From assembly GCF_053078305.1 (NCBI RefSeq), contig NZ_CP166879.1: a stretch of DNA of 64,000 bases, one strand, 5' to 3'. The stretch's first letter is position 1. Each line of letters begins with the position of its first letter. A program made the translations under genes and the position numbers. Below are positions 5,333-51,291 of the stretch, one piece after another. The notes under the pieces were generated by a model. It was not told the origin of the DNA and made no database searches. It was given only the letters and a program-made list of their open reading frames with translations.

Positions 5333-5388
5333 TTGATTTAAATGGTGCCGATAATAGGAGTCGAACCTACGACCTTCGCATTACGAAT
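5333..5388 (-). repeat. Island-distal att repeat: copy of the 3' 46 nt of tRNA-Thr plus 10-nt flank (ttgatttaaa)
   Basis: 56 nt identical to 51236..51291; diverges from the tRNA after ...ttacgaat; lacks the tRNA 5' half. Confidence 0.85.
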
Positions 5389-5553
5389 TAGCGAGACCAG
5401 TGATTCAAGATGTTCACAGCTGTTTCAGCATACAATAAAAAATATATAAAAATCAACAAAATACACATAAATGCAGTATCAAGATGTTTCGCCTTGTTTC
5501 TGATGATATCATGTTAAATGTGTACCCCACTGTGTACCCAAAAGGCTGAAGAT

Positions 5554-6873
5554 ATGACTTTTACTATTACACAAGACAGACAATTGGCTTCATTGACCGT
5601 TACTAAAGAAGAAAAAGAAATCTTATTTGCTGTAAAATCTAAAGCTGGGGGAGGACTCTTTATACGCGTTCGTTATGGTAGCGACAATAAAAGCTGGATT
5701 TATCGTTATCGAATAGCTCAAAAGCCAGCTAAATTAACACTAGGTAGTTACCCTGCCATGGGATTAGCTCAAGCTCGTAAAGCTCATGCGGATGCAATTG
5801 AATTAGTAAGAAAAGGTATAGATCCTCGTCATATTAGAAAAAATGAAAAACAAAAAAATGAACAAATGATTATTTACTCTGAATTATGGAAAGATTGGAT
5901 AGAATTCAGAAAGACAAGTAAACCAATTAGCACCAGAACCCTTGCAGATTATGAAGGGACTTATCACCGCCACCTTGAAAAAGCATTAGGAAACCTTCGC
6001 ATTGACGAACTTACCAAAAGCGTTATTTTTGAACATCTCAGTAATGTAAGAAAAACCAGTTCTGAAGCAGTTCGTAAAGGATTAATTATTCTAAATATGA
6101 CTCTTGATCATGCCAACTTACAGGGTATGCTTGAGCATAACCCAGCACGACTGCTCAAACCAGCAATGTTTGGTGCATCGATGAATAAACCTCGCGAGCG
6201 ATGGCTTCCTGAGAATGAACTCCGGATGCTATGGAAGGCTTTGGATGATGCTACTGTTGGAGGAGGCTCCATTGCATCTGGTGGCTATGGAATTTCCTCT
6301 AGTGTGGTATTATCTCATTCTGTCGCAAATGCACTCCGTTTGATTATTTTCACAGGAGTGCGCCGCTCTGAAGCGGCACAAATGCGCTGGGATCAAATTA
6401 ATGGAGAGCGTTGGACCATACCAGCCACTAAAAATGGGAAAAGCCATATTGTTACTTTACATCCGTATATGCTTTCTTTAATAAAAACACAACGTGAATT
6501 CACTGAAGGTGCATATGTTTTTGGTTCTACTAGCAAACCTGGCTTTCCCATCACAAATGACGCTCTGACTCGCGCGTTAGAAAGGGTTCGCTCTAAGTAT
6601 CTAGCCGAACTTACTCCATTTTCTCCTCATGATCTGCGTAGAAGTGTTGCGACTGGATGCGCTGAATACCTTGATGCTCCAGAGCGCCTAATAGAGTTAC
6701 TGTTAAATCATGTACCCAAAGACCGTTTAATACGAACATATCAAGTCGGACAACAAGCTGAAAAATTAAAAAATTTATTTATAGAATGGGGGAATTTTAT
6801 TATGAATAACGTCATTACTGTGCAGCAGAATGCTCCGGATAATGTTATTCATATAAAATTTGGGAACAGATGA
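5554..6873 (+). CDS. int: Tyrosine recombinase, P4-type integrase
   Basis: ORF 5518..6873; AAGG RBS before ATG 5554; adjacent to att repeat; C-terminal catalytic region (…RRSEAAQMRWDQI…HDLRRSVAT…NH…) typical of phage integrases. Confidence 0.85.
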   Translation: MTFTITQDRQLASLTVTKEEKEILFAVKSKAGGGLFIRVRYGSDNKSWIYRYRIAQKPAKLTLGSYPAMGLAQARKAHADAIELVRKGIDPRHIRKNEKQKNEQMIIYSELWKDWIEFRKTSKPISTRTLADYEGTYHRHLEKALGNLRIDELTKSVIFEHLSNVRKTSSEAVRKGLIILNMTLDHANLQGMLEHNPARLLKPAMFGASMNKPRERWLPENELRMLWKALDDATVGGGSIASGGYGISSSVVLSHSVANALRLIIFTGVRRSEAAQMRWDQINGERWTIPATKNGKSHIVTLHPYMLSLIKTQREFTEGAYVFGSTSKPGFPITNDALTRALERVRSKYLAELTPFSPHDLRRSVATGCAEYLDAPERLIELLLNHVPKDRLIRTYQVGQQAEKLKNLFIEWGNFIMNNVITVQQNAPDNVIHIKFGNR

Positions 6874-6965
6874 TAAAAATACATGCATGGTCTGAGATAC
6901 CCTGTCTACTCGACCATGCAGTATGGTTCAACTAAATCAGTCACAACAAGAAATGATTAGTTTTA

Positions 6966-7814
6966 TTAGATATTGTATGGGATTATTTCTGGATAATACT
7001 TCGCAATGATGTCATTTAGCCGATCAACCAGTTCTGGTTTTCTGAACGTGATATGCGCGGAGCCCTTCTTAAAGTATCTGATGCTGAACATCTCATCTTC
7101 ATAGCAGGCTTTGCCCTGAACGGAGCGGATGTGATCATCCAGCCGAATAATGATATTTTCCCGGCTGTCGGGGATCGGTTTGCCGCTGAACAGGTGCAGC
7201 ATTCTTTCCAGGTCGGCAAGTCGATCTGCCTGTTGCCCGGTGATAAGATGCAATCCCCACCGGTCCCACCTCACCAGATTGTTGACGATAATTTTACTGC
7301 CAAATTTACAGGGGCAATTGGTTTTGTAATCCCAGCTCAGTCCCCTGAAGACGTTGATGACCCCACGCTCAAACACTTCATCCTTATTCTGGTGTAGCTG
7401 CTCAAACGTACTCAGTATATTCTCTTCACTGATTTCCGGAAAATTATCGTACTCCAGTGACCGGTACCATGTATCACGGGCCTGTGCATCCATTAAGGAA
7501 AGCATCCCTGAACGTTGCATCAGGTCACGCCAGATTTCACGGTCAAGGTTGCGGGTGATGGCTTTCATTGCCGTTTCAGGTTTCTCCATCAGCCAGCAAC
7601 CGCAGCGAAAATCCTGTTTCATGGCCCAGTCCGGAGCAGTTTTACCTCCAATACTTTCTGTCATTGCTGATATTTCAGCCAGTTGCCGGATAAGTGTGTC
7701 GATTTGCAGAAGTGTGCTCTTTCGTACAGCCAAAATGTGGCGGATACTGGTTGAGCAGATAACGTCCGTATGCCCGTTGACCACTTCCGGACGGGCGATT
7801 GTGATGCCTGACAT
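6966..7814 (-). CDS. Conserved island-associated hypothetical protein (possibly DUF4942-like)
   Basis: 282-aa ORF, same strand as the downstream CP4-like array; family recalled, not verified. Confidence 0.45.
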   Translation of the reverse strand: MSGITIARPEVVNGHTDVICSTSIRHILAVRKSTLLQIDTLIRQLAEISAMTESIGGKTAPDWAMKQDFRCGCWLMEKPETAMKAITRNLDREIWRDLMQRSGMLSLMDAQARDTWYRSLEYDNFPEISEENILSTFEQLHQNKDEVFERGVINVFRGLSWDYKTNCPCKFGSKIIVNNLVRWDRWGLHLITGQQADRLADLERMLHLFSGKPIPDSRENIIIRLDDHIRSVQGKACYEDEMFSIRYFKKGSAHITFRKPELVDRLNDIIAKYYPEIIPYNI

Positions 7815-50252: not shown

Positions 50253-50338
50253 ATCACAGATGGGATAACATCCCGGTTATCCCCTGTTTGTTCTGCTTCA
50301 GGTTGCCAGAGCTCCAGGAACACGAGGCAATCGGCAAA

Positions 50339-50935
50339 TTATGCGGCTTTTCCATTAACAGATTCGACCACAAGAACAACACCGTGTTTGTTTCGATCAG
50401 GATGTTCACTCCAGATTTCTGATTCAGGAATACTTTCCCCATCATAGCAGATCCGATCACCATCAAACGGATAATACCGTGCGGAATCTGTATCTAAGAT
50501 AAACACCTTAAGATTCGTTGAACGACGCGCTATATGCTGCCAGAGGGCTTTACCTCCTTCATATTGCTCGTTATCACTTAATAGTATAACGCCTGCTTTT
50601 GTGGCTATTGTTTCATAAACAAACGTAGCAAGGCTAACATCACGTACAGCGCCATCGACAACAATCCCTTCAATCTGAGCAACGTCCTGTTCTTCCCAGA
50701 ATTTCCGGACAACCCCCCCTTCAAGCTGTGAACGACGCTGAAGCTCCAGAGTGGCAACAACCTTATAGCGAATATCACCATCAATAACAGAAGGTGCAGC
50801 TTCGATTACCGCAGCGAACGGAGTCTTTGGATCCCAGATGATCTGGTAAAGCACACCCTGAATAGTTACTCCATCCAGTATCGAAAAACGACGAGCTACA
50901 GTAGCAGGGGAGTAAGACATTGGAATGACAGCCAT
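50339..50935 (-). CDS. Uncharacterised protein adjacent to thrW
   Basis: 198-aa ORF convergent with the 545-aa gene; no recognised motifs. Confidence 0.45.
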   Translation of the reverse strand: MAVIPMSYSPATVARRFSILDGVTIQGVLYQIIWDPKTPFAAVIEAAPSVIDGDIRYKVVATLELQRRSQLEGGVVRKFWEEQDVAQIEGIVVDGAVRDVSLATFVYETIATKAGVILLSDNEQYEGGKALWQHIARRSTNLKVFILDTDSARYYPFDGDRICYDGESIPESEIWSEHPDRNKHGVVLVVESVNGKAA

Positions 50936-51235
50936 TTTATGGCCTAAAATTTGAAAACATCAGTATCAATACTGACCTCATCAGTCTGAGCATATATTGA
51001 TAAAGTTTTTATGTTTACACTCAATAAATACCTTGCTAAACAACTAATAGCGATGTCTACATTGCCATTCGACATGCTTACAATTTTTGTCAACAAGAAA
51101 GTGAATTTATATCAACGGTAAGAAGTAAACACGAGGACACCAAAACCAAATGTATACACTTTTGTGCTTTGTGTCCCCTGTGTGTACCCAAATGACAAAC
51201 TGCAAGAAAATCTAGGCACACACTTATCTAACTTA

Positions 51236-51291
51236 TTGATTTAAATGGTGCCGATAATAGGAGTCGAACCTACGACCTTCGCATTACGAAT
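51236..51291 (-). repeat. thrW-proximal att repeat (3' 46 nt of tRNA-Thr plus ttgatttaaa)
   Basis: Identical to 5333..5388. Confidence 0.85.

Follow-up and report, generated by a model that had tools for sequence, protein, structure and literature searches.

The DNA analysed here is a stretch of 64,000 nt from contig NZ_CP166879.1 of the RefSeq assembly GCF_053078305.1 (hereafter, the window), in which a 45.9-kb genomic island occupies the tRNA-Thr gene thrW. We conclude that this is one integrative island, served by one integrase and a two-armed attachment (att) site and filled with patchwork cargo, and that it is not a tandem pair of elements; we give this reading a probability of about 70%. 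An earlier note made from the letters of this DNA alone had proposed stepwise or tandem accretion at thrW. The stepwise part of that proposal is retained here, as the content of the island is mosaic and hence points to a stepwise build-up. Meanwhile, the presence of two att copies only, a sequence motif shared between the two ends, and tandem arrays in other strains, which keep their att copies, speak against the tandem part.

Limits of the island and the unoccupied thrW site

The direct repeats that bound the island have a length of 56 nt (5333-5388 and 51236-51291) and are identical at 56/56 positions. When two mismatches are allowed, the repeat grows to 63 nt (5326-5388 and 51229-51291). 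Both ARAGORN and Rfam placed the tRNA-Thr(CGT) gene thrW at 51246-51321 on the minus strand, and it follows from these coordinates that the repeat consists of the 3' 46 nt of thrW and 10 nt downstream of it. To the right of thrW, the window continues with proA, proB, phoE, and crl. The search for the att core with two sub-patterns (up to three mismatches, both strands, the whole 64-kb window) revealed it at two places only, with 0 matches expected by chance. The repeat search and the tRNA predictions thus agree with the earlier claim that exact 56-nt repeats containing the 3' 46 nt of thrW delimit the island.

The limits were further examined by comparison with genomes in which thrW is unoccupied. 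For this, window positions 4589-5388 were joined to 51292-52091, and the simulated empty junction was searched in 5426 complete E. coli genomes. It was matched in 818 of them at a coverage of at least 80%. The strain ET350 gave a single unbroken match of 1600 nt at 100%, and in this genome thrW directly adjoins the same pseudogene flank as in the window. Compared with the flanks in the window, those of ET350 show identities of 99.5% (5389 nt) and 99.97% (5863 nt). As the exact empty site is present in some genomes, the island is both precisely delimited and polymorphic. The comparison therefore upheld the limits given in the earlier note, and the near-isogenic flanks around the empty site of ET350 indicate that the region is not fixed in all relatives.

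The left flank next to attR (~4790-5210) is made up of truncated short-chain dehydrogenase/reductase (SDR) and LysR pseudogenes that are fused. Most of the genomes with an empty site have ~1040 nt extra in this flank, and the deletion is common to the window and ET350.

Taken together, the locus has the features of a tRNA-associated island: a regenerated tRNA gene, its 3' fragment as the far-end repeat, an arm-binding tyrosine recombinase next to an att site, and a presence/absence distribution with a precise empty site.

The integrase, the att arms and the origin of the modules

The annotation used was that of the Prokaryotic Genome Annotation Pipeline (PGAP) for the 99.7-99.8% identical island of the strain STEC17-190, checked with Pfam, NCBIfam, and PADLOC. 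The sole integrase gene begins 165 nt from attR, at the island end far from thrW, and reads inward. It had been pointed out before that the only integrase lies at this distal end and that the thrW-proximal block with AlpA, YfjI, Gp2/YagK, and a helicase is without one; the annotation and the Pfam results are in agreement with both statements. The integrase shares only 25% identity with IntF of E. coli K-12 and 23% with the 438-aa integrase that accompanies the proximal block at other sites. Its homologues at 60-78% identity were found in Pectobacterium, Klebsiella, Salmonella, and Aeromonas. A locus search of genome contigs gave no confirmed locus for these cross-species relatives, and a homologous-protein search together with the encoding contigs was used for them.

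The K-12 gene intF, the E. coli integrase gene int440 (440 aa, 68% identical to the integrase of the window), and a 70%-identical Pectobacterium homologue are all situated ~130 nt inward of the displaced thrW fragment, and all point into their islands. The int440 gene faces a convergent cargo of UvrD and HsdR genes, and the Pectobacterium homologue is arranged in a similar way. As this layout is found in every thrW anticodon-loop integrase examined, the distal position of the integrase is no sign of two elements. At thrW, a tRNA-distal integrase is the normal layout, and it is the internal att copies that betray real tandem arrays. Panis et al. listed the ptwF-intF pair of K-12 as a rare 'opposite-divergent' shape (PMC2951348).

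A short inverted repeat (GCATGGTC ... GACCATGC, 6884-6922) is present in the 92 nt that separate the integrase gene from the convergent DUF4942 gene. It may be a bidirectional terminator, and it was not called by a simple terminator scan.

In the 64 kb of the window, the 11-nt motif TGTGTACCC[A/C]A is matched exactly at three places, compared with 0.06 expected from base composition. All three copies are on the plus strand and at most 190 nt from the att cores. Two of them stand in tandem (5519-5529 and 5531-5541) just upstream of the int ATG, and the third (51181-51191) is located in the thrW-side arm, 45 nt from the attL core. The motif sites are kept in other copies of this island type, including those of STEC17-190 and EA2, and at the corresponding position homologous integrases are accompanied by another tandem repeat, AAGTACGC. 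We read the copies of TGTGTACCC[A/C]A as putative arm-type Int sites. With the motif beside both cores, both island ends would belong to one integrase.

The content between these ends is, by its sequence identities, a mosaic formed by module exchange with other CP4-type islands. The region 47600-50939, which includes AlpA, hyp545, and hyp198, shares 95-97% identity with islands close to nfeF and ypjA. In those islands, the 438-aa integrase directly adjoins hyp198, and the homology to the window stops 4 nt past the hyp198 start codon (50939). Elsewhere, the proximal block hyp198-hyp545-AlpA-YfjI-Gp2-TOTE is accompanied by a different, adjacent integrase. The region 30739-47662, from within cdiA to YfjI, shows ~96% identity to a serX-linked island with yet another integrase, and a matching gene order stands beside thrW-proBA in the pCP127 record of strain EC93. 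The yee module is near-universal and is found at 80-90% identity in more than 4000 genomes, its homology beginning at ~6985, in the last codons of DUF4942. Meanwhile, the joint between the integrase and DUF4942 is identical in 191/191 genomes that have this integrase.

Relative to the integrase, the backbone from AlpA to DUF4942 is the mirror image of that in CP4-6 of K-12. This arrangement could result from a swap of the integration module or from an inversion, and no intermediate between the CP4-6-like and the present order was found. In the case of an inversion in situ, the ancestor would have been CP4-6-like, with the integrase followed by co-directional hyp198, AlpA, and YfjI and with the toxin-antitoxin end by thrW, and the whole block between the integrase and attL would have been flipped. 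Two breakpoints, at ~6985 and 50939, would suffice for this, and the gene order is indeed the exact mirror of that of CP4-6 between the same two landmarks. However, no inverted repeats were detected at the breakpoints, and no genome was seen with the integrase beside hyp198, every integrase match listed also spanning DUF4942. In part, a convergent, unrelated neighbour is already seen beside relatives of the integrase in other species, which would also speak against an inversion. We consider such an inversion improbable. Moreover, its outcome is the same as that of an integration-module swap, and it is a variant of the single-island reading and not a true alternative to it.

A rival reading is tandem accretion, in which a newer CP4-type island would have settled beside an older element; the older one would then have been cut down to its integrase and attR, the newer one would have lost its integrase, and the att copy between them would have disappeared. 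The proximal block does normally have its own adjacent integrase elsewhere, tandem arrays do arise at thrW in other strains, and the integrase is convergent with DUF4942, as though it belonged to another unit. Against this, the core search described above found neither a third att copy nor an internal remnant in the window, and the 92-nt stretch from the integrase to DUF4942 contains nothing att-like. No second integrase or its remnant was found either: the annotation of the 99.8% identical genome contains a single recombinase, and hyp198 and hyp545 have no integrase domain. The homology break at the hyp198 start codon is followed by an arm with the motif of the distal integrase, and the constancy of the int-DUF4942 joint in all 191 genomes also speaks against the junction of two units.

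The arrays known from other strains likewise argue against a tandem origin. They comprise up to three units and retain full or 27-nt partial att copies between them. The array of strain 2 HS-C consists of a prophage remnant, a small island with its own integrase, and then this island type. In other arrays, what comes after the int440 island is either this island type or a lambdoid prophage. In LR881940, a 27-nt partial core is found between the toxin end of another element and the arm of this island. In such arrays, it is the 300-nt thrW-side arm that opens this island type. Strains EA2 and C4 share both island ends with the window and differ in cargo and length. We therefore regard tandem accretion as unlikely.

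The array stretches are 12001-12420 in LR881940, 20001-33457 in 2 HS-C, and 7560-8040 in the int440 loci, in coordinates of the stretches compared. ARAGORN called the int440 att copy a tRNA-like gene.

Under the single-island reading, we infer the following course of integration. In the circular form, the 56-nt core of attP would be flanked by the 300-nt thrW-side arm and by the 165-nt integrase-side arm. The integrase would act on this core and on thrW, recombining them in the stretch from the anticodon loop to the 3' end, so that the island would supply the new 3' half of the tRNA gene and the old half would be moved 45.9 kb away, beside the integrase gene. AlpA would likely act as an excision or regulatory cofactor. 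The cargo between the arms would have been assembled by recombination with other CP4-type islands, the backbone from AlpA to DUF4942 thereby coming to lie opposite to that of CP4-6 and losing the integrase that stands next to it at other sites.

Several points weigh against this reading. The putative arm motif is represented by three sites only. A simple promoter and terminator scan around int gave nothing above background, and no convincing sigma-70 promoter was found for the gene. The thrW-side arm is present in 278 genomes and the integrase junction in 191, which means that the two ends are not strictly co-inherited; in the inspected cases, the unpaired ends are explained by deletions mediated by insertion sequence (IS) elements. 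Neither an attP junction nor an excised circle was found in the 5426 complete genomes or in metagenome contigs (searched with a 106-nt junction), which leaves the island a putative mobile element at present. Finally, a tandem origin with a clean loss of both the internal att copy and one integrase has to be set against it. As for a fixed remnant, once mobile but now immobile and vertically inherited, with the empty sites marking lineages that never acquired the island, it would fit the missing attP junction and the annotation, in which no transfer, packaging, or relaxase genes were found, but we consider it very improbable, as the repeats are still identical, the integrase and AlpA are intact, and ET350 shares the flank with its rare deletion and yet has an empty site.

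Gene content

The coordinates of the island features are presented in Table 1. The GC content of the island blocks ranges from 38% to 59%.

Table 1. Features of the thrW island, with positions and strands in the window.
Feature	Position	Strand	Evidence or remark
attR: displaced 3' fragment of thrW (46 nt) and 10 nt downstream	5333..5388	-	identity to 51236-51291; aligns with attR beside K-12 intF
Integrase-side att arm (165 nt), two tandem motif copies	5389..5553	+	motif scan; kept in STEC17-190 and EA2
Sole integrase, 439-aa P4-type tyrosine recombinase	5554..6873	+	Pfam Arm-DNA-bind_3, Phage_int_M, Phage_integrase
yee/flu backbone: DUF4942, DUF957, DUF5983, CbtA/CbeA toxin-antitoxin, DUF987, RadC, antirestriction, DUF932, DUF905, IrmA, 838-aa hypothetical, Ag43, GTPase	6966..20234	-	PGAP, Pfam
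838-aa hypothetical between IrmA and Ag43	13278-15794		no family match except faint PADLOC PDC-M09B
Intact Ag43	15915-19190	-	
YeeP-like GTPase	19362-20234	-	
Type III restriction-modification (R-M)-like pair and BRO-N	20544..26344	+	PADLOC, Pfam
Mod	20544-22667	+	PADLOC MTase_III, E=1.4e-290
Res-like helicase	22664-25237	+	PADLOC REase_III weak (E=5e-9, short stretch); Pfam ResIII only
BRO-N protein	25550-26344	+	Pfam Bro-N
cdi-flanking imperfect repeat, left copy	26513..26542	+	
Contact-dependent growth inhibition (CDI) locus: cdiI, cdiA, cdiB	27611..39512	-	annotation, Pfam
cdiI, Imm63	27611-28021	-	
cdiA, C-terminus VENN-DUF6862-TNT	28023-37733	-	
cdiB	37746-39512	-	
cdi-flanking imperfect repeat, right copy, upstream of DprA-like gene	39885..39914	+	
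Shosta-type pair: ShosA (DprA-like) 40107-41000, ShosT 40997-41623 (208 aa)	40107..41623	+	PADLOC E=4e-103, 2e-50; Pfam DNA_processg_A
Proximal backbone (TOTE, Gp2/YagK, YfjI, YfjI fragment, AlpA)	41641..47923	-	annotation, Pfam
TOTE archaeo-eukaryotic primase and superfamily 2 (SF2) helicase, fused	41641-44001	-	
Gp2/YagK	44152-44715	-	
YfjI/DUF3987	45678-47111	-	
YfjI 5' fragment	~47363-47590	-	
AlpA	47696-47923	-	
hyp545	48615-50252	+	uncharacterised
hyp198	50339-50935	-	uncharacterised; adjoins attL arm
thrW-side att arm (300 nt), one TGTGTACCCAA motif	50936..51235	+	single copy in 278 genomes
attL: island-supplied 3' part of regenerated thrW and 10 nt	51236..51291	-	identity to 5333-5388
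Intact tRNA-Thr(CGT), thrW, then proA and proB	51246..51321	-	ARAGORN, Rfam

The cdi block is predicted to be a CdiBAI system, as it encodes a ShlB/POTRA-type CdiB and a CdiA whose toxin tip is delimited by VENN, with the immunity gene lying downstream. The tip of CdiA (28023-28946) matches the TNT domain (tuberculosis necrotizing toxin, an NAD+ glycohydrolase; Pfam E=3.6e-30) and would accordingly be NAD-degrading. The label 'effector tRNA nuclease' in a near-identical genome looks generic and is probably wrong for this CdiA allele.

The cdi module had also been described as having flanking repeats of its own. Such a repeat does exist (30 nt, 93% identity; ~45 nt when a 4-nt indel is allowed), but it gave no sign of being a signature of insertion or mobility. 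In the fetched serX and EC93 regions, the copy on the DprA side accompanies the cdiB-DprA block and the other copy is not present. In addition, the simulated junction of BRO and DprA without cdi was found in 0/5426 genomes. A discrete mobile cdi cassette was therefore rejected, and the repeat may be a recombination scar.

The adjacent ShosA and ShosT genes correspond to the Shosta system, for which a defence function is predicted. The pair accompanies cdiB in every context fetched. The TOTE primase-helicase is solitary, without other recognisable TOTE components. In the yfjI region, a direct repeat of 294 nt at 76% identity connects the 5' end of yfjI (46843-47136) with the truncated DUF3987 fragment (47319-47612). 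The sister islands at nfeF and ypjA and that in EC93 have this repeat as well, and it looks like an old recombination scar. The stretch 19055-19258, between the GTPase gene and agn43, matches the Rfam IS102 RNA family at 253 bits and is comparable with the yeeP-flu intergenic region of K-12.

The genes hyp545 and hyp198 had no match in Pfam, NCBIfam, PADLOC, or the sequences of the Protein Data Bank (PDB). The AlphaFold model of hyp545 gave no fold match at a predicted local distance difference test (pLDDT) score of 76 and a predicted template modelling (pTM) score of 0.80. Homologues of hyp545 occur across Gammaproteobacteria. Those of Klebsiella are located in a P2-like prophage between the tail genes S and V, a position that is a non-essential (moron-type) insertion, and that of Vibrio is located in an island between the integrase and AlpA. 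In both genera they are paired with a small acidic protein that shows no relationship to hyp198 and does not occur in the window. In the window, hyp545 together with hyp198 fills the slot by attL in which the sister islands have their integrase. We tentatively suggest that hyp545 is a new anti-phage or inter-element conflict gene and, separately, that the integrase with its motif-bearing arms is a portable cassette that captures integrase-less CP4 backbones and retargets them to thrW. Taken jointly, these two suggestions are possible rather than probable. Nevertheless, hyp545 and hyp198 are a cheap lead for screens of defence systems.

Relation to known islands

The thrW gene is the site of CP4-6 in K-12 (thrW ... 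intF, pseudo-tRNA ptwF), and the comparison of genes agrees with the earlier statement that this site is occupied here with different cargo. Both elements lie between proA-thrW and the yagP/pao region. Both have the same displaced thrW fragment as attR and an integrase gene ~110-165 nt inside that reads into the element (PMC2951348). The two attR sequences align base for base, the core identity being 3 nt longer in K-12. The backbone genes for toxin-antitoxin, RadC, DUF932, the GTPase, and YagK are present in both. However, IntF is only 25% identical to the integrase of the window, the backbone has the opposite orientation, and the cargo differs entirely: cdi, Shosta, TOTE, the type III R-M-like pair, and Ag43 in the window, and argF, mmuPM, the xylonate genes, and many IS elements in CP4-6. 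For these reasons, we rejected the island as an orthologue of CP4-6.

Islands with P4-type integrases at tRNA genes that contain flu and yee are textbook components of the accessory genome of E. coli, and in this respect the island itself is routine. In the previously described examples, GI-pheV and PAI III536 at thrW, the islands are modular and the P4-type integrase is their sole constant gene (PMC11537424, PMC7545054). As in GI-pheV-type islands, the repeats derive from the tRNA gene's 3' end, and the flu (Ag43) and yee modules are held in common and change through recombination (PMC11537424, PMC7545054). For GI-pheV and the majority of islands of this kind, however, the integrase is beside the intact tRNA gene in the same orientation and the repeats have 19-23 bp, whereas in the window the integrase is at the other end of the island, where it stands opposite and divergent to the tRNA fragment, and the repeat has 56 nt.

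The closest counterparts of the thrW-proximal half are the pCP127 record of EC93 and the serX island (OkiPb01677), both of which have the order cdiB-cdiA, DprA-like gene, 208-aa gene, TOTE, Gp2, YfjI, and AlpA. EC93 then continues with hyp545-hyp198-thrW-proA, as in the window. They differ from the window in their CdiA toxin tips and immunity genes (TNT and Imm63 in the window), and they bear IS elements as well as orphan toxin modules; in the serX version, an integrase of its own is adjacent. The tRNA or integrase context is not mentioned in the EC93 paper (PMC8190604). The founding CDI strain is the source given for the pCP127 record (NZ_CP061330.1, 17862-36478 of the stretch compared), which was deposited as a plasmid of 127 kb. 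The record contains thrW, proA, proB, phoE, crl, frsA, and gpt together with the thrW-proximal island block and the cdi locus. The presence of the genes of the thrW region means that this record carries, or was assembled with, the chromosomal thrW region. Across these contexts, one competition and defence package (CDI with a predicted NAD-degrading tip, Shosta, TOTE, and the type III R-M-like pair) recurs behind different integrases at several tRNA sites, which bears on how such arsenals spread.

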